The position numbers were made by a program, and so were the translations under genes. The notes below the pieces were generated by a model. That model had not been told where the DNA came from, ran no database searches, and was given only the letters and a program-made list of their open reading frames with translations. A stretch of DNA of 64,000 bases from Alphaproteobacteria bacterium (GTDB taxonomy: Bacteria > Pseudomonadota > Alphaproteobacteria > Rickettsiales > 21-14-0-20-44-7), in the NCBI GenBank assembly GCA_043757405.1, contig JAYVPI010000024.1, positions 16,412 to 80,411 of the forward strand, written 5' to 3'. Of the stretch, positions 9,237 to 60,125 are shown one piece after another; the stretch's first letter is position 1; every line of letters begins with the position of its first letter.

Positions 9237-11267
9237 AGCCTTTTGGGCGGAATCACTCCAGGAAAACCGCCACGCCGCAAAAAACCTTCCAGCGGCGGCA
9301 AAAAACCGCGCAAGAAAAAATCCGGCCCGAAAAAATTCGCCAAAACCCGTATCCTATTGAAGCTAGCTTCCGCCTTCGCTGCCGCATGTTTCATCGTTCT
9401 CTTCCTACTCATCATCATCTACGGCCATGACCTCCCAGATATCGACAAACTCTACGATGACAACCTCCAGCAAAGCGTCACCATCCTCGATTACAAAGGC
9501 AATACCATCGCTACTTATGGCGATTACTTTACTGAATTCGTGCAATATCGCGACATCCCCGAAGACCTAATAAACGCCGTTGTCGCCACCGAAGACCGCC
9601 GCTTCTTCAACCATTGGGGCCTCGACCCGCGTGGCATGATACGCGCTATGGCCAGCAATATCCTCCACGGCCATGTCGGCCAGGGCGGCAGCACTGTCAC
9701 CCAACAGCTCGCCAAAATAGTTTTCCTAAAACCCGAGCGCAAACTGAAGCGCAAAATCCAGGAAGCCATGCTCGCCATTTGGCTGGAGAAAAAATTCACC
9801 AAGGAACAAATCATCACCATGTATTTGAACCGCGTTTATCTCGGCAGTGGCGTATATGGCGTCGATGCCGCGGCACATAAATACTTCAACAAGAACGCCC
9901 GCCAATTGAACTTATACGAATCCGCCATGCTCGCCGGGATGCTTAAAGCCCCATCAACATATTCCCCCGCCAACAACCCAAATCTCGCCGCCGAGCGCAC
10001 TAAACAAGTTTTGCTCAACATGGTCGATGACGAAAAAATCACCGAAAAACAAATGAACCGCGCTTTGAAAACCGGCGCCCAAGTAAAAATCCAAACCATC
10101 AATCCCAGCACCAAATATTATGCAGATTTCGTAATCGACCAAATCGAAGAAATCATCGGAAAAACTTCGGATAACATTGTCGTAAAAACCACCTTCCGCC
10201 CCGATCTCCAGGCAATGGCTGAACAAAGCATTTCCAAAACCATGCTCGAATTCGCTGATAAGAAAAAAGCCGGACAGGCCGCGCTTGTCGCCATGAAGCC
10301 AAACGGCGCAGTCCTCGCCCTAATCGGCGGCGTTGATTATGCCGAAAGCCAATTTAACCGCGCCACGCAAGCCCAACGCCAGCCCGGCTCCTCCTTCAAA
10401 CTCTTTGTCTATACCGCCGCCATGATGTATGGCAAAAACCCTGATGACTTAATCAATGACGAACCAACCCGCATCGGCCAGGGGAAAAATTCTTGGACGC
10501 CATCAAACTATGACGGCAAATATCACGGCATGGTGACCTTGCGCGAAGCCTTTGCGCATTCATACAATGCCGCCGCCGCCAACCTCGCCCAAGAAATTGG
10601 CATCAGCAACGTAGTCTTCGTCGCCAAAAAAATGGGCATCAAATCCCAACTCGCCCAAGTTCCCAGTATCGCTCTCGGCTCCAGCGAAGTTAACCTGCTC
10701 GAACTAACCACCGCCTATGCCCATATCGCCAATAATGGCAACGCAGTCTATCCATATGCGGTAGAAGAAATCAAAACCCAGGGCGGCCAAATTCTCTATC
10801 AACGCGCCGATATCGGCATCCCGCAAATCATCGATCCCGAAACCGTACATAAAATGAATGATCTCATGAAAGCCGTTGTCACCCAAGGCACCGCCCGCGG
10901 CGCACAAATCGGCCGCGATGTCGCCGGCAAAACCGGCACCAGCCAAGATTTCCACGACGCCTGGTTCATCGGCTTCACCCCGCAGCTCATCACCGGAGTT
11001 TGGGTCGGTAATGACGACAATGCCGAGATGAACAAAGTCACCGGCGGCTCCCTCCCTGCCCGTATCTGGGCCCAATTCATGCGTCCGGCATTGGCTGGCG
11101 CACCTGCGCTTGCTATCAATTCCAGTTATGGCGGCTTCGGCGGTTTCACCAATAGCATTTCCGGCGGCGTTCAAAGCTTCTGGGATAGTTTAACCGGCGA
11201 TAGCGATGATACCCCGCCACGCCGCCAACCAGAAAATAATCCACGGAGTCTTTATCATGGCCATTGA
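9213..11267 (+). CDS. mrcA: class A penicillin-binding protein (PBP1A-type transglycosylase/transpeptidase)
   Basis: Glycosyltransferase motifs ATEDRRFFNHWG and GGSTVTQQLAK, plus transpeptidase motifs SSFK and KTGT. The start is ambiguous: the ORF track uses TTG at 9192, and the first ATG is at 9213. Both lie inside the octamer repeat. Confidence 0.85.
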   Translation: MQPRNYITSLLGGITPGKPPRRKKPSSGGKKPRKKKSGPKKFAKTRILLKLASAFAAACFIVLFLLIIIYGHDLPDIDKLYDDNLQQSVTILDYKGNTIATYGDYFTEFVQYRDIPEDLINAVVATEDRRFFNHWGLDPRGMIRAMASNILHGHVGQGGSTVTQQLAKIVFLKPERKLKRKIQEAMLAIWLEKKFTKEQIITMYLNRVYLGSGVYGVDAAAHKYFNKNARQLNLYESAMLAGMLKAPSTYSPANNPNLAAERTKQVLLNMVDDEKITEKQMNRALKTGAQVKIQTINPSTKYYADFVIDQIEEIIGKTSDNIVVKTTFRPDLQAMAEQSISKTMLEFADKKKAGQAALVAMKPNGAVLALIGGVDYAESQFNRATQAQRQPGSSFKLFVYTAAMMYGKNPDDLINDEPTRIGQGKNSWTPSNYDGKYHGMVTLREAFAHSYNAAAANLAQEIGISNVVFVAKKMGIKSQLAQVPSIALGSSEVNLLELTTAYAHIANNGNAVYPYAVEEIKTQGGQILYQRADIGIPQIIDPETVHKMNDLMKAVVTQGTARGAQIGRDVAGKTGTSQDFHDAWFIGFTPQLITGVWVGNDDNAEMNKVTGGSLPARIWAQFMRPALAGAPALAINSSYGGFGGFTNSISGGVQSFWDSLTGDSDDTPPRRQPENNPRSLYHGH

Positions 11268-12588
11268 TAATATTACCTTCGCTGAGAAACTAATCGCCAA
11301 ATGCAAAACCTTCGGCGCCACCGATGCCGAAGTCATGACCGGCGCCGGTGCCGATATTTCCGTCACTATCCGCAACGGCAAATTAGAAGACCTAATCCGC
11401 GCCGAAAGCTCCGGCTTTTCACTTCGCGTTTTCGTCGACAACCGCTCCGGCACAATCTCTTCCTCCAAATTCGCCGATGCCGATAAGCTAGCCGAAACCG
11501 CCGTCAATATGGCCAAAGCCGCGCCAGTTGATGAATTTTCCCAACTCGCGCCAAAGAAACTTTTATACAAGGCCAGCCTGGATTTAGATATCTACGACCC
11601 GCAAGAACCACCCGAAAACAAATTAATCGACCTCGCCATGAGCGTCGAAGCCACCGCGCTCGCCGTCAAAGGCATCACCAATTCCGAAGGCGGCGATGCC
11701 AGCTTCGCCAGTTATGAAAACACCCTGGTCACCTCTCACGGTTTCGCCAAAAGCCACAAATCATCCCGCACCGGCCTCTCTGTCCGCGTCCTCGCCGGCA
11801 GCGGAACCGGCATGCAACGTGATTATGATTATTCCGCCGCCCGTTATTTCAGCGACCTCGAATCTCCTGAAAAAATTGGCCTTGAAGCCGCCCGCCGCGT
11901 CCTGGAAAAACTAAACCCGCGCAAAGTCCCCTCTGGCCGCTATCCCGTAATTTTTGACCCGCGCATTTCCCGCAACTTAGTCTCTGATTTCGCCACCGGC
12001 GTCAGCGGCTCATCAGTGGCCCGCGGCACTAGCTATCTCAAAAGCAAAATGGAAGAAAAACTATTCCCCATCAACATCAACATCATCGACGACCCCCATA
12101 TCAAACGCGGCCAGGCCAGCAAACCTTTCGACGGCGAAGGCGTCGCCAACGCCAAATTAAAACTGGTAGAAAACGGAGTATTGAAATCCTGGCTCCTCGA
12201 CACCCGCTCCGCCAACCAATTAAAGCTAATCACCAATGGCCGCGCCAGCCGCGGCGGCGGCGGCCCATCATCGCCATCCAATACAAACCTATATTTGGAA
12301 AACGGCACTCTTCCGGTTGAAAAAATGCTCGCCGAAATCAAATCCGGCTTCTATGTCACCGAAGTTTTCGGCATGGGCATCAACTACACCAATGGTGATT
12401 ATTCCCAAGGCGCCGCCGGTTTCTGGATCGAAAACGGCGAGCTGGCCTATCCAGTCAGCGAAGTAACTCTCGCCGGAAATCTCCTCGAAATGTTCCAAAA
12501 CCTCACCCCGGCAAATGACCTGAAAATGAAATACTCCACCAACGCCCCCACGTTAAGAATCGACGGTATGACCCTGGCGGGAATATAA
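11257..12588 (+). CDS. pmbA: metalloprotease PmbA/TldE
   Basis: PmbA/TldD-family pattern with a C-terminal GDYSQGAAGFWIENGE motif. The start is taken at MAIDNITF and overlaps the PBP stop by 11 nt. Confidence 0.85.
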   Translation: MAIDNITFAEKLIAKCKTFGATDAEVMTGAGADISVTIRNGKLEDLIRAESSGFSLRVFVDNRSGTISSSKFADADKLAETAVNMAKAAPVDEFSQLAPKKLLYKASLDLDIYDPQEPPENKLIDLAMSVEATALAVKGITNSEGGDASFASYENTLVTSHGFAKSHKSSRTGLSVRVLAGSGTGMQRDYDYSAARYFSDLESPEKIGLEAARRVLEKLNPRKVPSGRYPVIFDPRISRNLVSDFATGVSGSSVARGTSYLKSKMEEKLFPININIIDDPHIKRGQASKPFDGEGVANAKLKLVENGVLKSWLLDTRSANQLKLITNGRASRGGGGPSSPSNTNLYLENGTLPVEKMLAEIKSGFYVTEVFGMGINYTNGDYSQGAAGFWIENGELAYPVSEVTLAGNLLEMFQNLTPANDLKMKYSTNAPTLRIDGMTLAGI

Positions 12589-24813: not shown

Positions 24814-25002
24814 GATTAGGTCTGTATAGCCGGATTTGCCGTGAAATCTAGAGTTAAGTTAGCGAGTTTGCAATCCCCCAATTGTTTTGCCCCGGCATGT
24901 GACAATCAAGCCTTCACTTATTTACCTATAGAAATGGGCATTTGTCATATTTCTGTCATATCCGTTTGTTATTGTTAACGAACAATTCATTTGGGATATG
25001 TT

Positions 25003-25401
25003 ATGGGAAAATTTAGTCACGACGATGGCGACAAAAAAGCAAAACCAATATATCGCCACATCATGCCAGAATCAGTTGACATTGATGCCTATATGAAAGG
25101 GCTGGAACAAATTTATCGTGCCGCGGATAAGGGCGACGGGTTTTTCAATCTTCACGGCAAACATGACGGCAAGTTATCACGAACTGAATTAAGAGATGCA
25201 TTTGAAGCAAGATATAACATGCCCATAAGCGCCAAACAGGAGGAAGCTCTTGAACGTATCATACCCAAAGAAGGCATTAATATCGATGCCGCCCTACAAA
25301 AAGCCCGCAAACAACTAGAAAAAGCCGATCTTAACCATGACGGCATTTATGACGCAAAAGACCTGCCCAACCCCCCAGCAACGCATCATACGCAGAAATA
25401 A
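25003..25401 (+). CDS. hypothetical protein with EF-hand-like loops
   Basis: DLNHDGIYDAKDL and HGKHDGKLSRTEL resemble 12-residue Ca-binding loops. The first ATG is at 25003; the ORF track uses TTG at 24991. Confidence 0.45.
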   Translation: MGKFSHDDGDKKAKPIYRHIMPESVDIDAYMKGLEQIYRAADKGDGFFNLHGKHDGKLSRTELRDAFEARYNMPISAKQEEALERIIPKEGINIDAALQKARKQLEKADLNHDGIYDAKDLPNPPATHHTQK

Positions 25402-25480
25402 TTATACACTATAATACATCACAAACTCAATCGGATGCGGCGCTGTCTCGTATGTCAACAACCCCTCCCTCTTCAAATCC
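25402..25480 (-). pseudogene. orphan duplicate of the last ~26 codons of glnA
   Basis: Reads [25 protein letters not shown], compared with [25 protein letters not shown] at the true glnA end (26263-26341). The Ser codon differs (AGT versus TCG). Confidence 0.85.
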
Positions 25481-25522
25481 GCGCAGTTTGACTTGCGCTT
25501 CAGACTTTGGTATTATTAACTC

Positions 25523-25735
25523 ATGACATTACAGCAAATTGAAAATCAGGTATCCAACCTCGCCCCCACTGATCTGGCCGCTTTCGCCAAATGGTTCGGC
25601 ACGTTTGTCGCTGCGCGGCTTGATTATGATAATTGGGACATGCAGATGATTGCCGATTCCCAAAACGGGAAATTTGATAAGATAATTGCCAAAGTCGATG
25701 CCAATTTCGAAGCGGGTAAATGCAAACCAGTTTAA
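25523..25735 (+). CDS. putative antitoxin (70 aa) of a ParE-like toxin module
   Basis: Small acidic ORF whose 3-prime end overlaps the start of the toxin-like reading frame by 16 nt. Confidence 0.45.
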   Translation: MTLQQIENQVSNLAPTDLAAFAKWFGTFVAARLDYDNWDMQMIADSQNGKFDKIIAKVDANFEAGKCKPV

Positions 25736-25990
25736 ATCACTTCACGGATCCTGATTACTGGCTTTATTATAAAAATATACCCGAAAACATACTCAAACCG
25801 CGCCGATAAAAACTTTCTGCTCTTGAAAGATAATCCAAGCCATCCGTCGTTACATTTCAAAAAGCTTGATGATAATTTATGGTCGGCGCGAATCGGTTCC
25901 TACCGCGCCGTTGCCAGAAAAAGAAAGGAAGGCTTCATCTGGTTCTGGATCGGCCCGCATGCGGAATATGATAAATTAATTGGGAAATAA
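25720..25990 (+). pseudogene. frameshifted ParE-like/RelE-superfamily toxin gene
   Basis: Frame 1 reads MQTSLNHFTDPDYWLYYKNIPENILKPRR* and stops at 25807-25809. The next frame, from ~25793, reads ADKNFLLLKDNPSHPSLHFKKL..WSARIGSYRAVARKRKEGFIWFWIGPHAEYDKLIGK*. Confidence 0.6.
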
Positions 25991-26260
25991 TTATTGAGAC
26001 TGATTTTTCAATTTCTCATATTGGCGCATTAACGAATACCATAATAATTGGCCAAAGCACAATATTCCCCATATAAATGAAATAATAATACTTATAATAT
26101 GATCACTCGATCCATGATGTGAGTTTACGGATAAAGTAAACTCAAATATTGACATGCCTAATGCCCATATACTTCCATATACAAGCGAAAACCGCCATTT
26201 ACCTAATTTTTTAGTTTTTTCCAGTTTAGCTAATCTCTTTTGCTCTTTTTCTGTAAGCAT
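25991..26260 (-). CDS. small membrane protein, 89 aa
   Basis: Two hydrophobic helices and A+T-rich sequence. Its ATG lies 2 nt downstream of the glnA stop on the same strand. Confidence 0.4.
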   Translation of the reverse strand: MLTEKEQKRLAKLEKTKKLGKWRFSLVYGSIWALGMSIFEFTLSVNSHHGSSDHIISIIISFIWGILCFGQLLWYSLMRQYEKLKNQSQ

Positions 26261-26262
26261 TA

Positions 26263-27708
26263 TTATACCGAATAATACATCACAAACTCAATCGGATGCG
26301 GCGCTGTCTCGTATGTCAACAACTCCTCCCTCTTCAAGTCCATATATGCGTCAATCTGGTCATCGCTGAACACGTCGCCTTTTTTCAAGAACGCGCGGTC
26401 TTTATCCAGTGCTTCCAAAGCCTCGCGCAGTGAACCGCAAACAGTCGGCACATCTTTCAATTCCTCCGGCGGCAAGTCGTACAAATTCTTATCCATCGCC
26501 TCACCCGGGTGAATCTTGTTCTCAATCCCGTCCAGCCCCGCCATCATCATCGCCGCGAAAGCATAATATGGATTGGAAGTCGCATCCGGGAAACGCACTT
26601 CAATCCGTTTCGCCTTCGGTGATGCCACATATGGAATCCGGATCGAAGCCGAGCGGTTACGCGCAGAATATGCCAGCAGCACCGGCGCTTCGTAACCTGG
26701 AACCAAACGTTTGTAGCTGTTGGTAGAAGGGTTGGTAAAAGCGTTAAGCGCCTTAGCGTGTTTGATAATTCCGCCGATGTAATAAAGCGCCATCTCCGAC
26801 AAATCCGCATAACCATTGCCAGCGAAAAGCGGTTTGCCGCCTTTCCATAATGATTGGTGGCAGTGCATGCCTGAACCATTATCGCCAAAAATCGGCTTTG
26901 GCATAAACGTCGCCGTTTTGCCATATGAATGCGCCACGTTATGCACGCAATATTTATAAATCTGCAAATTATCCGCCGTGCGGATTAGCGTCGAAAACTC
27001 AATCCCCAATTCGCATTGCGAAGGCGCAACTTCGTGATGGTGAAGCACCGCTTTCAAGCCCATTTTCTCCATCATCAAAATCATCTCGGCGCGGATATCG
27101 TTCAAAGAATCCACCGGCTGCACCGGAAAATATCCGCCCTTGGTGCGCGGACGGTGGCCATGATTGCCGCCTTCAAATTCATGATCCGACATTTCCGGAT
27201 CTTCAACCGAAGTCACTTGGTAAAATGATTTGGTCTGGTTGGTTTTATATTTCACATCATCGAAAATAAAAAACTCCGCTTCCGGCCCAAAATATGCCGT
27301 ATCGCCGATGCCTGTATATTTCAAATATTCCTCAGCCCGTTTCGCCGTAGAACGCGGATCACGAATATAACCCTGTCCGGTGGAAGGCTCAATTACATCA
27401 CAAAAAATTATCAAAGTAGTCTGCACCGTAAACGGATCCAGAACCGCAGTCGATGCATCCGGCATCAAAATCATGTCCGATTCATTAATCCCCTTCCAAC
27501 CCGCAATCGAAGAACCGTCGAACATAATCCCATCAGAAAACGAATCCTCATTGACGAATGAGGCGCGGTATGAAGTATGGTGAGTTTTGCCGCGCGGATC
27601 AGTAAAGCGGAAATCGACAAACTCGACCTCCTCTTTCTTGATCAAATCAAGCACAGATTTAGCATCGGATTTTGAATCAGATTTTGCCAAAGATTTTTGA
27701 TTGGCCAT
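26263..27708 (-). CDS. glnA: glutamine synthetase type I
   Basis: Motifs [21 protein letters not shown] and [12 protein letters not shown]. Confidence 0.95.
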
Positions 27709-48305: not shown

Positions 48306-48370
48306 ACGTCATCCTGAACGAAGTGAAGGATCTGCCATAGCGGGATCCTTCACTTCGTTCAGGGTGACGT
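48306..48370. repeat. CGTCAT-type palindromic element (P6) in the metE leader
   Basis: acgtcatcctgaacgaagtgaaggatc ... gatccttcacttcgttcagggtgacgt. Confidence 0.9.
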
Positions 48371-48437: not shown

Positions 48438-50762
48438 ATGGCTAATGTAATTGCAACAAACCTCGGTTTCCCGCGCGTCGGCGCTTTTCGTGAATTGAAG
48501 AAAGCTGTTGAATCTTATTGGAAAGGTGACTCCCAATTGGACGCTTTGCAAGCAGAAGCCAAAAAAATCCGTGCTGAAAACTGGAAATTCCAAGCTGATA
48601 ACGGCATCCAGCACATTCCTTCCAACGATTTCTCCCTCTATGACCATGTCCTCGACACAATCGCCCTCCTCGGCGCTGTTCCACCACGTTACAAATTTGA
48701 AGGCTCCCAGGTCGATGCCGATACATATTTCGCCATGGCCCGCGGCGGCCGCACTGGCAAACTAGCCAATGTCCCAGCCATGGAAATGACAAAATGGCTC
48801 GATACAAATTATCACTACATTGTGCCTGAGCTTTCTAAATCCACAAAATTCGCCCTTTCATCCACCAAAATCTTTGATGAATACAACGAAGCCAAAGCAC
48901 TCGGCGTCAACACTCGGCCCGTATTGCTCGGACCAGTTTCCTTCCTCCTCCTCGGTAAGGAAAAAGACGGCGGCAATGTATTGGAACTCCTCCCAGCAAT
49001 TCTCCCAGTTTACAAAGAAATCCTTTCTAAACTAGCAACCGCTGGCGCGGAATGGATCCAATTGGATGAACCGGCATTGGTTCTCGACCTCAATAACGAC
49101 CAACGCGCTGCTTTCAAAACTGCTTATGCAGAGTTGAGCAAAGCAACCGCTCCAAAAATCCTGGTCGGCACATATTTCACTGACCTCGGCGCAAACCTTG
49201 AAACAGCTTTGAACCTCCCAATCCAAGCATTGCACCTGGATATCGTTCGTGGTGAAAAACAGCTTGATGAAGCGTTGAAAACCGCTCCGGCAAACTTGAT
49301 CCTCTCCCTCGGCGTAGTCGAAGGCCGCAATATCTGGAAAACAGATTTCGAAAAAGCCCTCGGCAAACTCGAAAAAGCAGTAGCAAACCGCGGTGCCGAT
49401 AAAATCTTCGTTGCCCCTTCTTGCTCACTCCTCCACTCTCCGGTTGATCTGGATTCTGAAACCAAGCTCGATGCCGAACTCAAAAACTGGCTCGCTTTCG
49501 CCCGTCAAAAAATCAAAGAAATCAGCACTCTCACCAAAGCTCTCAGCAATGGCCGTGATTCAGTAAAAGCTGAACTCGAAGCCAACAAAGCTGCAATGCA
49601 ATCCCGCGCCACTTCAAAACGCATCCATAATGATGCAGTGAAAAAACGCGTTGCCGAAATCACCCCTGCACTTGCTAACCGCAAATCCGCATATCCTGCC
49701 CGCGCGGCAATTCAAGGTGCAAAACTGAACCTCCCATTGTTCCCAACAACAACAATCGGCTCATTCCCGCAAACTGAAGACGTCCGTGCTGCCCGCGCTG
49801 CCAACAAAGCCGGTAAAATGTCTGACGCGGATTACACAAAGTTCCTGCAAAAAGCGACTGCGGAATGTATCCAATGGCAAGATGAAATCGGCCTGGATGT
49901 CCCCGTCCACGGTGAATTTGAGCGTAACGACATGGTCGAATATTTCGGCGAACAGCTCTCCGGTTTCGCGTTCAGCCAATTCGGTTGGGTTCAAAGCTAC
50001 GGCTCACGCTGTGTGAAACCGCCAATCATTTTCGGCGATGTCTCCCGCCCAAAACCAATGACCGTCGAATGGGCAACTTTCGCGCAAAAACAAACTAAAA
50101 ACCCAATGAAAGGCATGCTCACCGGCCCCATCACCATCCTTCAATGGAGCTTCGTGCGCGACGACCAGCCGCGTGAAGCCACAACCAAACAAATCGCCCT
50201 CGCGATTCGTGATGAAGTTGTGGATCTGGAAAAAGCCGGAATCAAAGTAATCCAAATCGACGAAGCCGCCCTCCGCGAAGGCCTGCCTTTGCACCGTTCT
50301 GAGTGGAATGATTACCTCCGCTGGGCCGTCGAAGCTTTCCGCATCACCGCATCAGGCGTGCAGGACAAAACCCAAATCCACACCCATATGTGCTACAGCG
50401 AGTTCAACGACATCATCCAAGCCGTCGGCGCAATGGATGCAGACGTGATTTCAATCGAAACCAGCCGCTCACAAATGGAACTCCTCGACGCTTTCGTCGG
50501 CTATAAATATCCAAACGAAATCGGACCCGGCGTTTATGATATCCATAGCCCAATCGTTCCAACCCAAGAACAAATGACTGGTTTGTTACAAAAAGCCCTA
50601 AAAGTCCTCGACGCCAAACAAATCTGGGTAAACCCCGATTGTGGCCTTAAAACCCGCGGCTGGAAAGAAACCAAACCGGCGCTTGAAGCCATGGTTGCTT
50701 CTGCCAAAGCACTCCGCGCCCAAGTCAGCGGCGCCAATGGTAAGAAAGCGGCGAATGGTTAG
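48438..50762 (+). CDS. metE: cobalamin-independent methionine synthase
   Basis: Two-domain MetE of 774 aa, with GFPRVG near the N-terminus and the C-terminal Zn-site region HTHMCYSEF ... NPDCGLKTR. Confidence 0.95.
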   Translation: MANVIATNLGFPRVGAFRELKKAVESYWKGDSQLDALQAEAKKIRAENWKFQADNGIQHIPSNDFSLYDHVLDTIALLGAVPPRYKFEGSQVDADTYFAMARGGRTGKLANVPAMEMTKWLDTNYHYIVPELSKSTKFALSSTKIFDEYNEAKALGVNTRPVLLGPVSFLLLGKEKDGGNVLELLPAILPVYKEILSKLATAGAEWIQLDEPALVLDLNNDQRAAFKTAYAELSKATAPKILVGTYFTDLGANLETALNLPIQALHLDIVRGEKQLDEALKTAPANLILSLGVVEGRNIWKTDFEKALGKLEKAVANRGADKIFVAPSCSLLHSPVDLDSETKLDAELKNWLAFARQKIKEISTLTKALSNGRDSVKAELEANKAAMQSRATSKRIHNDAVKKRVAEITPALANRKSAYPARAAIQGAKLNLPLFPTTTIGSFPQTEDVRAARAANKAGKMSDADYTKFLQKATAECIQWQDEIGLDVPVHGEFERNDMVEYFGEQLSGFAFSQFGWVQSYGSRCVKPPIIFGDVSRPKPMTVEWATFAQKQTKNPMKGMLTGPITILQWSFVRDDQPREATTKQIALAIRDEVVDLEKAGIKVIQIDEAALREGLPLHRSEWNDYLRWAVEAFRITASGVQDKTQIHTHMCYSEFNDIIQAVGAMDADVISIETSRSQMELLDAFVGYKYPNEIGPGVYDIHSPIVPTQEQMTGLLQKALKVLDAKQIWVNPDCGLKTRGWKETKPALEAMVASAKALRAQVSGANGKKAANG

Positions 50763-50829
50763 TCAAACAAGACGCTGACCTCAGCGGCCCACAAAAGCTT
50801 TATAAAAGGAGCGCAGGGAATTTTTTGCG

Positions 50830-51576
50830 CTATTGATAACTGGCGGCAGTGCCGGTCGCAGTGCCGAAATGTATATGCACGGTACAGGCATAACCGGTAG
50901 TGGAAAGGTTATATGCATATGCGCCGCCGCCCGCAGCTGTTGAACAGGCGCCGCCGCCAAAACCAAAAGCTACAAAATTCCCACCTGTATTTCCTCCCGC
51001 CCAGGTCGTATCCATCGCCATGCCGTCATCGATTTTCAAATCAATCGCTTTGGCATCAACCGGCTTTAGCGGGTCTCCTGTCGCGGTTTCAAAACCTGTC
51101 CCCGCACGCTGATTATAATAATCAAGGGTAGGGATTGTAGCTGTGCCACCCGCTGCACTATCATAAACTATTAAACATGGTTGATTGGCAGTATTCTGGT
51201 CGATATTAAACTTCGGGCAACCGCTCTCATTGGCACCGGCAGTATCGGGATTAAAAGCCGCCGTGTAAGCAGAGCCTTTATAGTTCATCAATCCGACGCC
51301 CAATGATAAATGATACCAAAAGTTATATTGCTCGGCTACAGCATCATAATAACCATTATTATTCCCGGCATTTGTAAGCAAACTGGAGTCACCCGGCAAT
51401 TGGTTGTATTTGGTTTTAAAATTGCTTATTGCAACATCATATTGGGTTAATTGCCTTACGACACCCTGAACTTTAGTAGTTCCAACCATACTCTGCGCCG
51501 CCAGAATCCCGCCGATCAGCAGACCTATAATCACCAGCACAATCGAAAGCTCAACGAGCGTAAACCCTTTTTTCAT
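50830..51576 (-). CDS. prepilin-type N-terminal cleavage/methylation-domain protein (248 aa)
   Basis: MKKGFTLVELSIVLVIIGLLIGGI is the class III signal peptide (G|FTLVE). No assembly genes lie nearby. Confidence 0.75.
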   Translation of the reverse strand: MKKGFTLVELSIVLVIIGLLIGGILAAQSMVGTTKVQGVVRQLTQYDVAISNFKTKYNQLPGDSSLLTNAGNNNGYYDAVAEQYNFWYHLSLGVGLMNYKGSAYTAAFNPDTAGANESGCPKFNIDQNTANQPCLIVYDSAAGGTATIPTLDYYNQRAGTGFETATGDPLKPVDAKAIDLKIDDGMAMDTTWAGGNTGGNFVAFGFGGGACSTAAGGGAYAYNLSTTGYACTVHIHFGTATGTAASYQ

Positions 51577-51703
51577 AAACCAAATCTACTAAATTATTAT
51601 ATGTAATCAAGCCGCCAGCCCTAACACTAGCTATATAACCCCTATTTTTATCGCTTGAGTTACTTCTCCGTTGTCAAAGCCGCGTTTCAAATTATTAGGA
51701 TTA

Positions 51704-51961
51704 TTATCGGGATTTATGAACTTCCTCGCTAGCCTGAACCTCTTCCAACCATGAGCTTACATAACCTCTCTCTTCCATCGCCGCACCCATTTGATATGGA
51801 AAATTAAATTTAGCCGGAACCCCGGCTTCATATAAAACTTTGCCCGGCCCCGCTTGTAAACCTTCTGTTACATTTTTGAGCACCGCCACCCGGTTCACCC
51901 AGCCACAATAGGCCATCCCTATCCAAGCAGCTGCACCAACCCATTTTAAATTTTTACTCAT
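51704..51961 (-). CDS. hypothetical protein, 85 aa
   Basis: ORF only; no motif recognised. Confidence 0.35.
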   Translation of the reverse strand: MSKNLKWVGAAAWIGMAYCGWVNRVAVLKNVTEGLQAGPGKVLYEAGVPAKFNFPYQMGAAMEERGYVSSWLEEVQASEEVHKSR

Positions 51962-51992
51962 ACAAACATGATAGTTTACATTACTTAACTAA

Positions 51993-52103
51993 TCAAGCCC
52001 CTACTTCCGTTCCACCAACCGTCATCGACGAAATCAACAGCGAAGGCTGCCCAACCCCCACCGGCACGCCTTGCCCATCCTTGCCGCAAGTACTGATGCC
52101 GGG
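51993..52103 (-). pseudogene. orphan duplicate of the last ~34 codons of tldD
   Basis: Reads [36 protein letters not shown], compared with [34 protein letters not shown] at the real tldD end. The nucleotide sequence differs at many synonymous sites. Confidence 0.85.
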
Positions 52104-52268
52104 GCCAGCCGTCTCACTACAATTATCAGCGTGAACAAAAATTAGTAGACTTTCACCGCTTATTACTATATATGTTGCCTTCTTCCCATAAGAATCATAT
52201 TTTCACTACAAAAGCTTATATAAAACAAAATAGATTGTGTTTAACTGCAATTGAAATAGTAATTTATC

Positions 52269-52856
52269 ATGAAACTGGCGCTTGCAACACAAAATAGCTT
52301 TACTGGAAATAATTTGTCTAAAAAAGACCGTTTGAAAGAAATTATCATAAAAAAATCCCTTAAAAAGGGGGATTTCACTTTAGCGTCCGGAGCTAAAAGC
52401 GATTATTTGTTTGATTTGAAAGCCACCCTGATGGATTCCGAAGGCGCCAATCTGGCCGGGCACTTGATCCTGGAAAAAATAGCCGAGGATATCGACGCTA
52501 TCGGCGGCCTGGAACTAGGCGCCTGCCCTGCCATAGATGCCGCCAATATCATAAGCTTCCAACTCAACCGCAAACTAAAAGCCTTTTACGTCCGCAAAGA
52601 GAAAAAAGGCCGCGGCACAGACCAGCTTATTGAAGGTTGCCAGCTTAACCATGGCGATAAGATTGTAATTCTTGACGATGTAACCACCAAAGGCGGTTCG
52701 GTTAAGGAAGCGATAAAAGCCGTTCAAGATCTTGGGTGCAAAGTTGTTAAAGTCCTCTCTGTCGTTGATAGAAATGAAGGCGCTGAAGCGAACCTGGCCA
52801 AAGATGGGATCGGGCTTGATTATATCTTTTCCAAAGATGAATTGCTGAACTCATGA
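52269..52856 (+). CDS. pyrE: orotate phosphoribosyltransferase
   Basis: FTLASGAKSDYLFD and the PRPP-binding loop IVILDDVTTKGGS. Confidence 0.8.
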   Translation: MKLALATQNSFTGNNLSKKDRLKEIIIKKSLKKGDFTLASGAKSDYLFDLKATLMDSEGANLAGHLILEKIAEDIDAIGGLELGACPAIDAANIISFQLNRKLKAFYVRKEKKGRGTDQLIEGCQLNHGDKIVILDDVTTKGGSVKEAIKAVQDLGCKVVKVLSVVDRNEGAEANLAKDGIGLDYIFSKDELLNS

Positions 52857-52860
52857 CCAA

Positions 52861-53202
52861 ATGAGCGTTCATAATTTCTTACCAAAAAAAGCAGAAGTTA
52901 TATTATCCACAGCTGCAAAAAACGGCTCCATAAGCTTGGACGAAATCTCCGATTTCTGCAAATATATCGGTGAATATTATAAAACCGCGAATTCGGGACG
53001 GCGGGTGATTTCCTATATCTTGTGGCGAGTTTTCTTAAAATATCAGGATAAATATGAAGCAGATTATATGACCCTGGAAGATTCGGAGAATTTAATAGCC
53101 AAACTTCAGCCAATCGACAGATTTTTAAAATATCTTCAAGGAAATATTGAATTAGAACCCGACGAGATAATTAAAATTTGTGACAATATAACCCGCTTAT
53201 AA
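52861..53202 (+). CDS. hypothetical protein, 113 aa, orphan
   Basis: A+T-rich ORF 4 nt downstream of pyrE. No motif recognised. Confidence 0.45.
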   Translation: MSVHNFLPKKAEVILSTAAKNGSISLDEISDFCKYIGEYYKTANSGRRVISYILWRVFLKYQDKYEADYMTLEDSENLIAKLQPIDRFLKYLQGNIELEPDEIIKICDNITRL

Positions 53203-53212
53203 TAATCAAGCC

Positions 53213-54658
53213 TTAAACCTCCGTCCCCCCTACCGTCATGGAGCTAATCAGCAACGAAGGCTGCCCCACTCCCACCGGCACCCCCTGCCCATCCTTGCCA
53301 CAAGTCCCAATCCCCGGATCAAGCTGCATATCATTCCCCACCATCGAAATCTTCTGCATCGCGTCCAACCCGTTGCCAATCAGCGTCGCCCCCTTCAAAG
53401 GCCGCGTCACTTTCCCGTTTTCAATCCGGTAAGCCTCCGTCGCGCTGAACACGAACTTGCCTGAAACAATATCCACCTGCCCGCCGCCGAAATATGGCGC
53501 GTAAATCCCGTTCTTCACCGATGCAATCATCTCATCTTGCGTATGCGTCCCCGCTTCCATAAACGTATTCGTCATCCTTGGCAGCGGCTTATGCGCATAG
53601 CTTTCCCGCCGTCCGTTCCCAGTCGGGGGCAAACCCATCAGCCGTGCATTTAACCTATCCTGCATCATGCCCACCATAATCCCGTCCTCAATCAAAACAT
53701 TCCTTTGCGTCGGCGTTCCCTCATCATCAATATTCAAAGACCCGCGCCGGTTCGGAATCGTCCCATCATCAACAACATTAACACCTTTCGATGCCACACG
53801 CTTCCCCATCATCTCCGAATAAACGGATGTTTTCTTGCGATTAAAATCCCCCTCAAACCCATGCCCGATCGCCTCATGCAACAACACCGCCGGCCATCCC
53901 GGCCCCAGCACCACCGGAAACTCCCCCGCCGGCGCCGGAATCGATTCCAGATTCACCAATGCCTGGCGCAACGCATCATCAGCCTGCGCCCGCCACTTAT
54001 CGGCTGAAATAAATTCCAGATATCCCGCACGTCCGCCAACCCCATTCCCGCCACGCTCCATGCGCTTGTTATCCTCAACCGTAACCGAAATATTCAACCG
54101 CACCAATGGCCGAAAATCCGTAGCAATCCGCCCATCCCCGCGCAACACCATCACCGACTGATGCTCCCCCGATATCGAAACCGAAACCTGCCGCACCCGC
54201 GGATCCCGCCCACGCAGATAAGCGTCGATGTCTTGCAGCAGTTTCACCTTTTCAGCAAAGCCAAGCCCATGAATCGGGTTAGTTTCAACATATAATTGCC
54301 GATTCTCGATTGACGATTGCCGATTTTTTCCCTTCAATCGAGAATCGGCAATCGGCAATCGGCAATCCCTTCCCTTCACCGCCCCCATCGTCCCCGCCGC
54401 CCGCAAAATCGCCTCCTCACTCAAAACTGAGGAGTGCGCATAAGCCACCGCCTCATCCACCACCCCACGCAAACCAAACCCTTGTGACTGATCAAACGAA
54501 GCGTTCTTCAACTTCCCATCATCAAATACTAAAGACTCACTCTCCGAAATCTCGATGAACAACTCGCCATCATCAAGCTTGCCGATAGAACCAGCAACAA
54601 TGCGAGAGAGCTTGGCTTCGGATGTGTCGGCGGCCTGTAAAAATATATCTTTATTCAT
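53213..54658 (-). CDS. tldD: metalloprotease TldD, carrying an in-frame repeat insertion
   Basis: HEAIGHGFEGD metalloprotease motif and the TldD/PmbA C-terminal domain. Confidence 0.9.
   Translation of the reverse strand: MNKDIFLQAADTSEAKLSRIVAGSIGKLDDGELFIEISESESLVFDDGKLKNASFDQSQGFGLRGVVDEAVAYAHSSVLSEEAILRAAGTMGAVKGRDCRLPIADSRLKGKNRQSSIENRQLYVETNPIHGLGFAEKVKLLQDIDAYLRGRDPRVRQVSVSISGEHQSVMVLRGDGRIATDFRPLVRLNISVTVEDNKRMERGGNGVGGRAGYLEFISADKWRAQADDALRQALVNLESIPAPAGEFPVVLGPGWPAVLLHEAIGHGFEGDFNRKKTSVYSEMMGKRVASKGVNVVDDGTIPNRRGSLNIDDEGTPTQRNVLIEDGIMVGMMQDRLNARLMGLPPTGNGRRESYAHKPLPRMTNTFMEAGTHTQDEMIASVKNGIYAPYFGGGQVDIVSGKFVFSATEAYRIENGKVTRPLKGATLIGNGLDAMQKISMVGNDMQLDPGIGTCGKDGQGVPVGVGQPSLLISSMTVGGTEV
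54294..54368. repeat. 75 nt heptamer-arm hairpin element inside tldD
   Basis: aattgccgattctcgattgacgattgccgatt - ttttcccttc - aatcgagaatcggcaatcggcaatcggcaatcc, read as [25 protein letters not shown]. Confidence 0.9.
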
Positions 54659-54698
54659 AAATTGATCCTATCATGTTTGCTCACAAATTAATAATCAA

Positions 54699-55032
54699 AT
54701 GAAAATTCTACTGATACTAAGTTTTTTATTGCTGGCACTAATAGCCATTTTTTATTTCAAATAATTTTTTAGCACCTAGCCTCGAAGAGCGTAAAGCGCA
54801 AGGCGATAGAATCATTTTAGCTATTGAAGAGTACAAAAAAGAAACGGGTAAATATCCTATTAGTTTAAATGAACTTCACCTTGAAAAGGATTTAGACAAA
54901 TATAAGTCTGACTTCAGCTACCAGCTCAATAAGAATGATAGTTATTTAATTGAATTCGGCTATGGATTTATGAAAGACTGCTTGCGTGATAAAAATTCTC
55001 GTTGGTTAGGGCATTGCAACTCACAGAATTGA
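54699..55032 (+). pseudogene. small secreted or anchored protein gene split by a frameshift in a T-run
   Basis: MKILLILSFLLLALIAIFYFK* (stop at 54762). The next frame then stays open from 54745 to 55032 (..APSLEERKAQGDRIILAIEEYKKETGKYPISLNEL..). The run tttttt lies at 54748-54753. Confidence 0.35.
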
Positions 55033-55104
55033 GCTGTAAAATATTTTATTCCACAGAAATAATTTGCACTTTCCCTTCAAACTATGCTACTATATAAGCG
55101 CATC

Positions 55105-56826
55105 ATGACTGAAAACCCGCCGCCAAAACCAGAGAAAAAACCCGTTGCTCAAGAAGCGATGAAGCGGGAATCTAACTATCTGCGCGGCCAAATCAAGCAG
55201 GAGCTCGAAGACACATCCAACCTCGAAGTCACCGACGCCACCTACGAACTCCTCAAATTCCACGGCTCCTATTTCGGCTATGACCGCGACACGCAGACCG
55301 AGCGCAAAAAGGCCGGGTTGGAAAAAGAATGGGAGTTCATGCTGCGCATGAAATGCCCGGGCGGAAAACTCAAAGCCGATCAATATCTTGCGCTCGACCG
55401 CATCTGCGAACATTTCGCCAACGGCACTTTGCGCATCACCACCCGACAGACTTTCCAGTTCCACAATATCTTGAAACCCGCGATGCGCCCGATGGTCCGC
55501 GCCATAATCGAGGCCGAACTCTCCACCCTCGGCGGCTGCGGCGATGTCAACCGCAATGTCCTCGCCTGCCCCGCCCCCATCAAGGATGAGCAGCACAAAA
55601 TAATGCAGGACACCACCGACCAGCTCGCCGAACATTTCGCGCCAAAATCCAGCGCCTATCTTGAAGTATGGATGGACGAGGAAAAACTCGATTTCGGAAC
55701 GCCGGAAGAAGTCGAGCCAATTTATAAAGACGTCTATATGCCGCGCAAATTCAAAATGGCCATCAACGAGCCGCATGATATGTGCGTCGAGCCAATGGTC
55801 AACGACCTCGCGCTGTTACCGATGTTTGAAAACGGCAAACTACAAGCCTGGAACCTCGCCATCGGCGGCGGCCTTGGCATGAACCACAACCAGCCGGAAA
55901 CCTACCCCCGCACCGCCACCATGCTCGGCGCAGTCGCCCCCGGCGACATCGTCGCAGCGGCACAAAGCATTGTTGAATTACAAAGAGATTTCGGCGACCG
56001 CACCAACCGCAAACACGCCCGCCTCAAATATGTAGTCGAAGAAAAAGGTATGGATTGGTCCCGCGAAATCGCCGAAAAATACTTCGGCAAAAAATTCTCC
56101 CCCGCCATGCCGGTCAAAAAATGGGGCATCGAAGACCATATGGGCTGGTTCGAACAAGGCGACGGAAAATGGTTCCTCGGCCTGCCGATATCATCCGGCC
56201 GCATCAAAGATAGCTACCGCGAAGGCATCCGCGAGCTTGTGAAAAAATACACAATGGACATCCGCCTGACCGCCGACCAGAATATTATTTTCTGCGATAT
56301 CGAAACCGGAGCCAAAGCCGAAATCGAAGCCCTGCTCAAAAAATATGAAATCAAACTGACAAATGAAATCACCCAAATCGACCGCTGGGCGCTCGCCTGC
56401 GTTGCCCTCCCAACCTGCGGCAAAGCCCTGACCGAAGCCGAGCGCATCCGCGACCCGCTAATCCGCGAACTGGAAAAAACCCTCGACAAACACGGGCTGC
56501 TGGACGAAAAAATGACCTTCCGCATAGCAGGCTGCCCCAACGGCTGCTCCCGCCCCTATGTCGGCGATTTCAGCATAGTCGGCCGCATGCCCGGCCACTA
56601 CAAACTCTACATCGGCGGCGATTTCGAAGCCACTAAACTAGGCGCCGAAATCTTCGACAAAGTCCCCTTAGAGGATGTGCCACTAGCATTAGACCCAATG
56701 TTCGCATTATTCGCCGCCAACAAAAAACCCGACGAAGGCTTCGGCGATTTCATCTCACGGTTTGGGCTGGATAATGTAAAAGAAAACGCGAAAGCTGCAC
56801 TAGCCGGCAAGAAGTGGGCAGCTTAA
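55105..56826 (+). CDS. cysI: assimilatory sulfite reductase hemoprotein subunit
   Basis: LKFHGSYFGYDRD and TTRQTFQFHNI, plus siroheme/4Fe-4S Cys motifs (ACVALPTCG, CPNGCSRP). An alternative ATG lies at 55084. Confidence 0.85.
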   Translation: MTENPPPKPEKKPVAQEAMKRESNYLRGQIKQELEDTSNLEVTDATYELLKFHGSYFGYDRDTQTERKKAGLEKEWEFMLRMKCPGGKLKADQYLALDRICEHFANGTLRITTRQTFQFHNILKPAMRPMVRAIIEAELSTLGGCGDVNRNVLACPAPIKDEQHKIMQDTTDQLAEHFAPKSSAYLEVWMDEEKLDFGTPEEVEPIYKDVYMPRKFKMAINEPHDMCVEPMVNDLALLPMFENGKLQAWNLAIGGGLGMNHNQPETYPRTATMLGAVAPGDIVAAAQSIVELQRDFGDRTNRKHARLKYVVEEKGMDWSREIAEKYFGKKFSPAMPVKKWGIEDHMGWFEQGDGKWFLGLPISSGRIKDSYREGIRELVKKYTMDIRLTADQNIIFCDIETGAKAEIEALLKKYEIKLTNEITQIDRWALACVALPTCGKALTEAERIRDPLIRELEKTLDKHGLLDEKMTFRIAGCPNGCSRPYVGDFSIVGRMPGHYKLYIGGDFEATKLGAEIFDKVPLEDVPLALDPMFALFAANKKPDEGFGDFISRFGLDNVKENAKAALAGKKWAA

Positions 56827-56827: not shown

Positions 56828-57205
56828 ATGAGTGAAAGCTCATACGCGATACTTAGCACGCACCAAACCACTAACTACACAGGCTCTCCATCAACATTAG
56901 CCAGCGACGTATTCGATAAAATTTTTAACCTGTTGATGGGCACACTAGGTTGGCAAGAACCAATTAATAAACAAGTTTTTAAAGCTTCATTTTCAGGAAG
57001 TGGCGAATATAAAATCAAAGCTAAACAATTAGCAGACGAATTAAATAGAGTAAGAATACTTCCACGGGAGCATGCGCGTGAAGTTTTCACCAAGATATTT
57101 GGAATATTAAGCAGAACCAATCCAGAAGCCATGCACCATATTCGCCGATTGGAACAAGCCATGAAAATTTTAGGAATTGGGAAAGTGCGCGAAGGAAAAT
57201 TATAA
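56828..57205 (+). CDS. hypothetical protein, 125 aa, wedged between cysI and the sirC-like gene
   Basis: Starts 1 nt after the cysI stop. Its own stop overlaps the next ATG as TAATG. No motif recognised. Confidence 0.45.
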   Translation: MSESSYAILSTHQTTNYTGSPSTLASDVFDKIFNLLMGTLGWQEPINKQVFKASFSGSGEYKIKAKQLADELNRVRILPREHAREVFTKIFGILSRTNPEAMHHIRRLEQAMKILGIGKVREGKL

Positions 57206-57720: not shown

Positions 57721-57798
57721 CGTCATTGCGAGCGAAGCGCGGCAATCCAGGGTCACGGGCGCCAACCCTGGATTGCTTCGCTAATGCTCGCAATGACG
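57721..57798. repeat. CGTCAT-type palindromic element (P7)
   Basis: cgtcattgcgagcgaagcgcggcaatccaggg ... ccctggattgcttcgctaatgctcgcaatgacg. Confidence 0.9.
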
Positions 57799-57856
57799 AT
57801 ATCTACAGATGAACCATGTGGAAATAAATATTTCACATAAATTCCTTGCATTTCTA

Positions 57857-57952: not shown

Positions 57953-58729
57953 ATGCTAGATTCCCTCCAAGGCCTCAACGCCGCCACCGAAAAACAAAAA
58001 GACCGCCTGACGCGGCTAGAGGCGTTCTATGCCGATATGGACACGCGCCAGCTCATCAAAACCATGCTGCATAAGGAATTCAAAAACGAAATCGCCCTCT
58101 TCTCCAGCTTCGGCGCTGATTCGGCATTGCTGATTTCCTTAATCGCCGAAATCGACCCAAGCGCCCCAATCCTTTTCCTCGACACCGAAAAACATTTCAA
58201 GGAAACACTGGAATATGTCGAAACCTTAGCAACGCAATTCGGCCTCAAAGACATCCGCATCCTGAAACCCGACCCCAACATCGTCAAAAACATCGATCCA
58301 AATGGCGATCTTTGGAGTAAGCAACCCAACCGCTGCTGCTGGATGCGCAAAGTCGAGCCGCTGCAGCGTGCTGTCCGCGAAATGGGCATCCACGCCCTCA
58401 TAACAGGGCGCAAACGCTACCAGACCGACGAGCGCCAGGACATGGGTTATTTCCAAATCGACGAAGACGGCGTCTTCCGCATCAATCCGCTCGCCTTCTG
58501 GACACGTGAGCAAATCAAAGAGGAATTCGCCAAACGCAACCTGCCGAAACACCCGCTAGTCGCTTCAGGCTACAAATCCATCGGCTGCCAACCCTGCACC
58601 TTGCCGGTGGCGGAAGGCCAAAACGAACGCGACGGAAGATGGGCGCATACGATGAACCTGTACGGAGAGAAAAAGAACGAGTGCGGGTTGCATTTGGATA
58701 AGCATACGACTAGTGAGTGGAGCGTTTAA
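57953..58729 (+). CDS. cysH: phosphoadenosine phosphosulfate (or APS) reductase
   Basis: PAPS-reductase fold (ALFSSFGADSALL) with C-terminal Cys motifs CCWMRKVEP and KSIGCQPCT. Confidence 0.85.
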   Translation: MLDSLQGLNAATEKQKDRLTRLEAFYADMDTRQLIKTMLHKEFKNEIALFSSFGADSALLISLIAEIDPSAPILFLDTEKHFKETLEYVETLATQFGLKDIRILKPDPNIVKNIDPNGDLWSKQPNRCCWMRKVEPLQRAVREMGIHALITGRKRYQTDERQDMGYFQIDEDGVFRINPLAFWTREQIKEEFAKRNLPKHPLVASGYKSIGCQPCTLPVAEGQNERDGRWAHTMNLYGEKKNECGLHLDKHTTSEWSV

Positions 58730-59253
58730 TGTCAAATCATGCAGAACTTGGTAGCTACAACAATGAGAGCGCCGTCCGCATTTTGAGAAAGCCTTTTCAA
58801 TATGGCGAAATGCTCATGGATATCGCCATGATTTTTAATCAGCCAGTTTATTTGAGCCAATTCCCAGCAATTGAAGACTTAGCAAACCAACTTAGAGACT
58901 TCGGTGAGAACAAAGTTGGGCCAATGCGTGGAAGTTTTGACAATATAAAAACTGCCGATGCGGCCATTGTAATTGCATTTCATAGGGCCAAACAATTCCT
59001 AACTTCATTCGTAGAAAATGACCAATATGGTCGCATATTTTTTACAGTTGAAAGTATGGAGTTAGAACCATCACAATTCCCAAAAAGCACCGGCCCCGCC
59101 CGTATCGAATTCCTCGACCATATAATTTCCCACACCCCAAAGGTGACTTATACTTTATCATCCGAAGATGAAGCCTTATTGCAAACAATCGCCGAAGGTT
59201 TAAGAAAACAACCCCCAACCCGTAATAAAACTGAAGAAGTAAGAGCATTATGA
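58729..59253 (+). CDS. hypothetical protein, 174 aa, wedged between cysH and cysD
   Basis: TAATG overlap with the cysH stop and ATGA overlap with the cysD start. More A+T-rich than its neighbours. No motif recognised. Confidence 0.45.
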   Translation: MSNHAELGSYNNESAVRILRKPFQYGEMLMDIAMIFNQPVYLSQFPAIEDLANQLRDFGENKVGPMRGSFDNIKTADAAIVIAFHRAKQFLTSFVENDQYGRIFFTVESMELEPSQFPKSTGPARIEFLDHIISHTPKVTYTLSSEDEALLQTIAEGLRKQPPTRNKTEEVRAL

Positions 59254-60125
59254 CAAATCAAAAATCAGCAATCGGCAATCAGCAATCGGCAATGGACCAC
59301 CTCGACAAACTCGAGGCCGAATCCATCTACATCTTCCGCGAAGCCTTCCACAAAATCAAAAAGCTCGGTATGTTGTGGAGTTTCGGCAAAGACTCCAACG
59401 TCATGTGCTGGCTGGCGATGAAAGCTTTCTACGGCAAAATCCCATTCCCATTGATCCAGCTCGACACCGAATTGGAAATGGACGAAGTTTACGCCTTCCG
59501 TGACCATTATAAAAAAGAATGGAACGTCAACCTCATCCAGGAAATCTGCCCGCCATATGAATCCACCGATCCATCTCTCCCACACAGCGCCCGCATCGCC
59601 GCCCGCAAAACCGGCGGCTTGAAACAAGTCCTCGACCGCGAACGCTTCGACGGAATCATCGCCGGCATCCGCCGCGACGAGGAAGGCACCCGCGCCAAAG
59701 AACGCTATTTCTCCCCCCGCGGCGTCGATAATGATTGGAACGTAAAAGACCAACCCCCAGAATTCTGGGGCCAATACATGACCGATTTCCCTCCGGGAAC
59801 GCATGTCCGCATCCACCCGCTTTTGCACTGGACCGAGCTAGACGTCTGGCTCTACATCAAACGCGAGGGCCTGCCAATCGTGCCATTATATTTTGCCAAA
59901 CCCTACAACGAATTCTACGGCGAAGATTACAAGGGCGCGATGATGCGCTTTAGGTCATTGGGCGAAAAAGGCATCACCTATCCGCTACCATCCACCGCCA
60001 CCAACATTGACGAAATCATTGAAGAATTGAAGACCACCAAAGTCTCCGAACGCGCCGGAAGACCAATGGGTGGGAATGAAGATGAGTCGAGTTTTGAGAG
60101 ATTGAGAGCTGCCGGATACATGTAA
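59250..60125 (+). CDS. cysD: sulfate adenylyltransferase subunit 2
   Basis: LEAESIYIFRE and WSFGKDS (PP-loop), plus the RRDEEGTRAKER motif. Confidence 0.9.
   Translation: MTNQKSAIGNQQSAMDHLDKLEAESIYIFREAFHKIKKLGMLWSFGKDSNVMCWLAMKAFYGKIPFPLIQLDTELEMDEVYAFRDHYKKEWNVNLIQEICPPYESTDPSLPHSARIAARKTGGLKQVLDRERFDGIIAGIRRDEEGTRAKERYFSPRGVDNDWNVKDQPPEFWGQYMTDFPPGTHVRIHPLLHWTELDVWLYIKREGLPIVPLYFAKPYNEFYGEDYKGAMMRFRSLGEKGITYPLPSTATNIDEIIEELKTTKVSERAGRPMGGNEDESSFERLRAAGYM
59255..59293. repeat. tandem heptamer array (AATCRGC)n forming the first codons of cysD
   Basis: aaatcaaaaatcagcaatcggcaatcagcaatcggcaatg, read as NQKSAIGNQQSAM. Confidence 0.9.

Follow-up and report, generated by a model that had tools for sequence, protein, structure and literature searches.

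The 3′ end of the protease gene tldD is present twice in the 64,000-nucleotide stretch of alphaproteobacterial DNA analysed here (contig JAYVPI010000024.1; hereafter the window), and the two copies bracket the orotate phosphoribosyltransferase gene pyrE and a small conserved partner. One copy completes an intact tldD gene, while the other is a displaced stub with no start codon; they differ at about one nucleotide in five and at a single amino acid. These features support the conclusion that purifying selection acted on the copies as they diverged in different genomes and that import from a relative later united them. We favour an explanation in which the import involved one-sided homologous recombination within tldD together with an illegitimate join, displacing the old 3′ end of the gene, and we regard this as the probable, if far from assured, course of events. 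The features at the center of the argument are as follows.

53213..54658, minus strand: tldD, an open reading frame (ORF) call of 481 aa, an intact metalloprotease gene with Pfam matches to PmbA_TldD_1st/2nd/3rd
53203..53317, minus strand: copy B, the attached 3′ end of tldD (PGIGTCGK...TEV, then stop), plus a 10-nt GGCTTGATTA tail past the stop
51990..52103, minus strand: copy A, a displaced non-functional tldD 3′ stub (PGISTCGK...TEVGA, then stop), with no start codon and in no listed ORF
52104..52268: AT-rich spacer (30–34% GC) of 165 bp upstream of pyrE, whose left edge at 52103/52104 is a sharp junction with the stub
52269..52856, plus strand: pyrE, orotate phosphoribosyltransferase, 195 aa (TIGR00336, 137.1 bits against a cutoff of 106.8)
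52861..53202, plus strand: orf113, 113 aa, convergent with tldD (stop codons 10 nt apart), function unassigned

Two copies of the tldD 3′ end

The tldD gene is full length, with E-values of 1.6e-69, 1.1e-16 and 6.6e-13 for its three PmbA/TldD domains, and the PmbA paralogue is a separate gene at 11206..12588. It is the ortholog of the TldD genes of the relatives L019, L020 and L021 (P0002–P0004), whose products share 89%, 87% and 84% amino acid identity with it respectively; the exact window protein was not on record. The final 34 codons (53216–53317, minus strand) are found again at 52002–52103, 1.2 kb away, and a self-search of the window aligns 53203–53317 with 51990–52103 at 81.6% identity over 103 bp (BLASTN E = 3e-20). 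The original prediction had placed the gene end at 53316, one base short of its true extent of 53213–53317. Translation of 51993–52103 on the minus strand gives the 36 residues of the stub. The B-type end has the sequence ..GAGGTTTAAGGCTTGATTA, and homology persists for about 10 nt past its stop codon (GGCTTGATTA), a segment that in the stub forms the last codons and the stop. The endings of both copies have counterparts elsewhere, as TEV, with which copy B ends, is found naturally in L020, and the TEVGA tail of the stub is similar to the TEVA or TEVAA endings of L007, L001, L019 and L021. A tblastn search with the TldD C-terminus detects no further tldD-like coding sequence past codon 446 at the left edge of the spacer (52103/52104), where we infer an illegitimate join, and an Rfam search of 50000–56000 gave no match.

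A codon-by-codon comparison of the two copies identifies 21 differences in 102 nucleotides, distributed 4, 1 and 16 among codon positions 1, 2 and 3, such that 18 codons differ, 17 of them synonymously and one non-synonymously. Duplication at roughly 20% nucleotide divergence, as the original prediction had judged by eye, is thus borne out by exact alignment, as is its expectation that the differences are predominantly synonymous. By the Nei-Gojobori method the proportion of synonymous differences (pS) is 0.61, the synonymous distance (dS) is approximately 1.3, and the proportion of non-synonymous differences (pN) is 0.054. One of the synonymous differences is a TCG/AGC serine switch that is unreachable in a single step, and the sole amino acid difference is a serine in the stub at a glycine that is invariant across all relatives. 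Identity between the copies is unbroken over at most 14 nt, in the interior of the repeat; the next such run is the 10-nt GGCTTGATTA block at the 3′ edge of the repeat, and the 5′ edge has no identical core.

This pattern departs sharply from that of random change. With 21 random substitutions, every one of 20,000 simulations produced at least 6 amino acid changes (mean 13.4), and with 10 substitutions every run produced at least 2 (mean 6.9), compared to the single change observed; the divergence is not the mostly non-synonymous kind that neutral change yields, and neutral drift of the stub in place has P < 5e-5. Lacking a usable start codon, the stub cannot owe its synonymous pattern to selection in its present position, and near-purely synonymous divergence in a startless stub therefore means that the copies diverged inside working tldD genes, in separate lineages. 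No second tldD end is present in the five relatives examined (L001, L007, L019, L020 and L021). The original prediction had argued for divergence under purifying selection in different lineages, followed by import and not a recent local duplication, and on each of these grounds it is upheld. The lack of a start codon and the one change at an invariant glycine would be as expected of a recently stranded relic.

An assembly chimera does not account for the structure. Over their overlap with 50500–54365, the Logan assemblies L016, L017 and L018, all three made from other sequencing runs, are 100% identical to the window, and L016 and L017 span both junctions.

The tldD–metE spacer, its cargo and a parallel at glnA

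The closest TldD proteins (those of L019, L020 and L021) are all from uncultured alphaproteobacteria, and the more distant metagenome-assembled genomes (MAGs) are labelled Rickettsiales or Alphaproteobacteria. Three further features of the window lie beyond the stub.

51704..51961, minus strand: ORF85, 85 aa, directly downstream of the stub, with no family match, and called as a gene in the Logan contigs
50830..51576, minus strand: pseudopilin with an N-terminal methylation motif (Pfam N_methyl), the ancestral downstream neighbour of tldD, which it follows in L019 and L020
48438..50762, plus strand: metE, the conserved far flank of the variable spacer, convergent with tldD in L021 and L020

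Reading in the direction of tldD, the order in the window is tldD, orf113, pyrE, stub A, ORF85, pseudopilin and metE. In L021 it is cysI, tldD, and then convergent metE after a spacer of 164 bp; in L020 tldD is followed by a 55-aa ORF, the pseudopilin, three more genes and metE, with a spacer of 3 kb; and in L019 by the pseudopilin and further genes. From these gene orders the tldD–metE spacer is a variable hotspot, which is empty in L021. The stub occupies the ancestral context, with ORF85, the pseudopilin and metE following it, matching the tldD-pseudopilin order of L019 and L020.

The three most similar tldD ends are approximately equidistant, with synonymous-codon differences of 17/33 between copies A and B, 14/32 between A and L019, and 16/33 between B and L019, and all three are closer to each other than to L020 or L021 (21–29 of 33–34 synonymous-codon differences). 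The donor therefore came from an unsampled lineage within this narrow clade, at roughly the divergence of L019. Distance to relatives does not polarise the copies significantly, either by nucleotides (16 vs 21 nt) or by synonymous codons (14/32 vs 16/33), and neither does the three-way site pattern of 11, 6 and 6, in which A matches L019 at 11 sites and B matches it at 6. Along the gene as a whole, the synonymous-codon difference between the window and L019 rises from 0.38 in codons 1–334 to 0.59 in codons 335–481 (change-point permutation p = 0.0035), and this abrupt change near codon 335 would indicate a recombination mosaic in the lineage of either the window or L019. L020 and L021, used as outgroups, give no polarity to the mosaic, with all distances near saturation. 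Only three TldD proteins in the protein collection exceed 80% identity, and none has pyrE downstream; a scan of viral contigs with the TldD C-terminus recovered only a full-length bacterial-type tldD in a giant-virus MAG (GVMAG) contig; and self-searches of the relatives' loci (110 kb) revealed no more gene-end duplications.

The gene between the copies that the original prediction named pyrE is indeed the orotate phosphoribosyltransferase gene. Its nearest homologues are 75–79% identical at the protein level and belong to the same alphaproteobacterial MAG clade, and the gene is therefore not from a distant phylum. The adjacent 113-aa gene had been described as an orphan, which does not hold: it is clade-restricted, and every relative examined has it downstream of pyrE as a conserved partner, with 115-aa homologues (52–60% identity) directly after pyrE in L022/L023, L024/L025, L026/L027 and L033. 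At 50% identity the whole family falls into one cluster in a set of 1.84 billion representative proteins. Neither Pfam nor NCBIfam matches it, its one PHROGs hit, of unknown function, is below threshold, and PHROGs searches of the small ORFs likewise returned only below-threshold matches of unknown function. An AlphaFold2 (AF2) single-sequence model of orf113 is all-helical and of low confidence (predicted local distance difference test, pLDDT, of 56). A metagenome scan with the orf113 alignment found two loci only, one of them already known. The pair is located as follows.

L022, 6038–7700: adjoining a Na/Ala symporter gene, the pair being closely followed downstream by the frameshifted N-terminus of a P4-type integrase
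L024, 8001–8894: downstream of a GGDEF-EAL gene and a 207-aa ORF, and upstream of an ADC-family gene
L026, 7109–8031: adjoining a type IV secretion system (T4SS) cluster
L033, 775–1713: adjoining CBS and Iso_dh genes
Window, 52269–53202: behind tldD

The pair is thus constant and its neighbourhood different in each genome, and both genes are AT-richer than their host loci in every genome. In the four other genomes, which sample the close relatives thinly, the pair has no flanking repeats and no tldD alongside; nucleotide homology among the pyrE loci is limited to coding sequence, so that the boundaries of the module are not derivable from the relatives.

The original prediction also pointed to the same pattern at glnA, and the self-search of the window confirms this. 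The last 25 codons and stop of glnA (26263–26341) are found again at 25398–25480, with the following arrangement.

26259..26341, minus strand: copy B2, the glnA 3′ end attached to glnA (26263..27708)
25398..25480, minus strand: copy A2, the displaced glnA 3′ stub, abutting the stop codon of the convergent ORF136 (24991..25401)
25481..26262: cargo of 782 bp between the copies
25991..26260, minus strand: 89-aa membrane ORF with a third-position GC content (GC3) of 0.28, the lowest in the window
~25720–25990, plus strand: broken ParE-like toxin gene
25523..25735, plus strand: 70-aa putative antitoxin gene

The glnA copies differ at 5 of 75 coding nucleotides (dS ~0.1) with one amino acid change and an AGT/TCG serine switch, and under random substitution so few amino acid changes have P = 0.007 by simulation. 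In L032 the site is empty, coxB following glnA after 135 bp, and L031 has a convergent 227-aa ORF, a homologue of ORF136, abutting glnA exactly as ORF136 abuts the glnA stub in the window. The mosaic test gave no signal for glnA (p = 0.55). The glnA case is thus of the same architecture, with a much closer donor and a typical selfish low-GC cargo, a broken toxin-antitoxin module.

Several short repeats are also present in the window. A 75-bp palindromic element of the CGGCAATCGGCAATCG family lies in frame inside tldD (54293..54367) and represents a separate event; it adds a net 9 codons in a variable TldD linker relative to L019, L020 and L021, both Logan contigs break at it, and it resembles Rickettsia palindromic elements. 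Other copies, at 6997–7071, 7245–7279, 41939–41979 and 59261–59301, overlap or abut other ORFs. The 9-mer AATCAAGCC (GGCTTGATT on the minus strand) is present in 6 copies where 1.6 would be expected, including at 24904–24912, 51605–51613, 51991–51999 and 53204–53212, and three of the copies are upstream of the minus-strand coxB, pseudopilin and ORF85 genes, spaced like −35 elements from weak −10 boxes. A promoter for downstream genes may overlap the tldD stop region. The 10-mer of the repeat's 3′ edge, found also at 51604–51613, was considered there as a third, decayed tldD end and rejected, having no extended similarity and being explained at least equally well by a promoter-like −35 box. An intergenic repeat family of about 93 bp (74–95% identity) is situated directly 3′ of minus-strand genes (18460–18549, 28413–28509, 28546–28637 and 34743–34835), and shorter intergenic palindromic or inverted repeats are found at 57729–57799 and 20730–20797, and at 22241–22294, 33644–33714 and 48306–48370.

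The sulfate-assimilation (cys) operon is split by different small low-GC genes in each genome. In the window (56828–57205, 58717–59253 and 60189–61009) these are a Zeta toxin gene with an 86-aa ORF and two ORFs without a family, and in the relatives they are bAvd/23S_rRNA_IVP and Zeta toxin genes (L019), Imm53 (L020) and DUF4357 (L021). The inserts point to frequent gain of small cassettes between conserved genes.

Import from a relative and its alternatives

Under the explanation that we favour, a fragment from a relative would have carried the 3′ part of tldD, directly followed by convergent orf113-pyrE and then the AT-rich upstream region of pyrE. One end of the fragment would have recombined homologously inside tldD, with the crossover at or upstream of codon 446 and possibly near codon 335, and the other would have been fused by an illegitimate join to the tldD of the recipient, around codon 446 and not downstream of the gene. 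As an outcome, tldD would read through the donor-type copy B, and the recipient's last 36 codons (copy A) would be left 1.2 kb downstream as an untranslated stub. No dedicated recombinase would be necessary, and the toxin-antitoxin cassette behind glnA could have arrived by the same route. There are no matches to recombinase, transposase or integrase Pfam families between the repeats or among the 61 scanned ORFs of at least 70 aa in the 64-kb window, and the only recombination genes among those ORFs encode RuvAB and a RecN-like protein. The mosaic at codon 335 would fit a donor tract reaching upstream of the repeat. Which of the copies is foreign, and where the homologous crossover took place, we infer from this arrangement.

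Several observations weigh against this explanation. Its polarity is unproven, with copies A and B about equally far from L019 (14/32 vs 16/33), and the mosaic signal could equally mean that L019 is the recombinant. The arrangement proposed for the donor, with tldD directly followed by orf113-pyrE, is absent from the five tldD and five pyrE contexts examined. That two illegitimate joins both fall within the last 25–36 codons of the anchor gene looks like a coincidence, although this is partly explained by ascertainment, because joins further downstream leave no visible repeat.

The alternative that deserves most attention, though we judge it unlikely, is a small integrative islet with the tldD 3′ end as its attachment site, which carried a surrogate gene end and whose integrase has since been deleted or was supplied in trans, as for a satellite. 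Direct repeats over the 3′ end of the target gene do bracket the inserted DNA, and such imperfect repeats around foreign DNA are the classic attL/attR picture; e14 likewise leaves a 163-bp icd′ pseudogene (PMC6379469). The empty site in L021, the behaviour of the spacer as a hotspot with other cargo in each relative, the identical 10-nt block at the 3′ edge of the repeat, and the integrase fragment next to the pair in L022 also fit an islet. However, no recombinase is found between the repeats or among the scanned ORFs, a biosynthetic gene pair is an atypical cargo for such elements, the pair lacks flanking repeats in four other genomes, and tldD and glnA as targets would demand two specificities. 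An identical core is missing from the 5′ edge of the repeat, the point at which an attP that restores the gene would cross over, and GGCTTGATT, from the 3′ edge, recurs upstream of other genes on the minus strand and fits a −35-like box. The original prediction had offered integration or recombination as alternative routes; import stands, with recombination the more probable of the two. The polarity could instead be reversed, such that copy B and orf113-pyrE are native and the stub, ORF85 and pseudopilin were imported, with the homology anchor on the metE side. The structure alone is symmetric, the L019 distances do not separate the copies, and the TEV ending of copy B is natural, as in L020. 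Nevertheless, the donor must then already have carried a truncated tldD end beside that DNA, which is an extra event, and the order of the stub and pseudopilin matches that of tldD and pseudopilin in L019 and L020, whereas tldD-orf113-pyrE is seen nowhere else; the stub also leans to L019 (11 sites vs 6 for copy B), although not significantly. We consider this polarity improbable.

Two further explanations carry far less weight. The idea that the end of tldD, or an entire tldD paralogue since largely deleted, was duplicated long ago in situ and that the copies then diverged where they lie is effectively refuted. It would agree with the roughly equal distance of both copies from L019, and with a derived GCTTGATTA tail that both copies share and that L019, L020 and L021 lack. 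But none of 20,000 simulations with 10 substitutions gave one amino acid change or fewer (P < 5e-5), the TCG/AGC serine switch requires long evolution under selection, and a second tldD copy or end is absent from the five relatives. The original prediction had allowed that equal closeness of both copies to one relative would be compatible with such a duplication; the closeness to L019 is indeed about equal (14/32 and 16/33), but this does not rescue the duplication, as the stub has no start codon. That an assembly artefact merged two strain variants is the least credible proposal; the contig is probably metagenome-derived, but independent Logan assemblies are 100% identical to it over their overlap and two of them cross both junctions, and at most 14 identical nucleotides between the copies is too short for a k-mer graph mis-join.

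Returning to import by one-sided homologous recombination, the tldD stub represents a dated molecular fossil, left by an uncultured and probably host-associated alphaproteobacterium that exchanges chromosomal DNA with relatives at approximately species-to-genus distance. The spacers between core genes (tldD-metE and glnA-coxB) gain cargo without visible mobile-element machinery, and pyrE and its conserved partner act like a pair that relocates, with consequences for metabolic reconstruction and for synteny-based orthologue calls in these MAGs. For annotation, such stubs are pseudogene fragments and not small ORFs. As a more doubtful extension, we speculate that there is a recurrent route in this clade, using no known integrase, that drops small cassettes exactly at the 3′ ends of conserved genes together with a replacement gene end, and that pyrE roams with its partner as a two-gene mobile module; the 113–115-aa partner might be needed for the movement or maintenance of that module.

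Comparison with known systems

Partial target repeats around small cargo in hotspots are a feature of genomic islands and of integrase-less satellite islets that lie at the 3′ ends of tRNA and tmRNA genes (e.g. those of tycheposon type). The tldD locus is similar in that partial target-gene repeats bracket a small cargo module in a hotspot between conserved genes, but the tRNA islets have RNA-gene targets and near-identical att sites from a known recombinase family, neither of which is seen at tldD.

At the 3′ end of icd in E. coli, where e14 and phage 21 insert, the old gene end is left as the 163-bp icd′ pseudogene (PMC6379469). There, as at tldD, a housekeeping gene has foreign DNA in its 3′ end; the incoming DNA brings a near-synonymous replacement end, and the old end is left as a short pseudogene at the far side of the insert. 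The e14 element is roughly 15 kb and has its own integrase and a defined identical core, whereas the tldD insert is 1.1 kb, has neither a recombinase nor a core at the 5′ edge, and has pyrE and its partner as cargo.

Displacement of old 3′ ends is also seen in rhs genes and in the effector-immunity arrays of type VI secretion systems (T6SS), for which a proposed mechanism is homology-facilitated illegitimate recombination (PMC5361080, citing Jackson 2009, PMC2935791). In these arrays, as we propose for tldD, an incoming allele with an upstream homology anchor replaces the 3′ end and pushes the old end and its neighbours downstream, with no integrase. The new ends in the rhs and T6SS arrays are different toxins, under selection for novelty, whereas the new tldD end encodes the same protein and the payload is downstream of the gene.

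Homology-facilitated illegitimate recombination itself is described from natural transformation in Acinetobacter, S. pneumoniae and P. stutzeri, and also from E. coli conjugation (PMC3240628). As at tldD, one homologous anchor and one illegitimate join put foreign DNA beside a conserved gene. Experimental events of this type usually delete recipient DNA instead of leaving a duplicated stub. The tldD event belongs to a known kind, the displacement of a gene end by import from a relative, here with an unusual housekeeping cargo and in a poorly known lineage.

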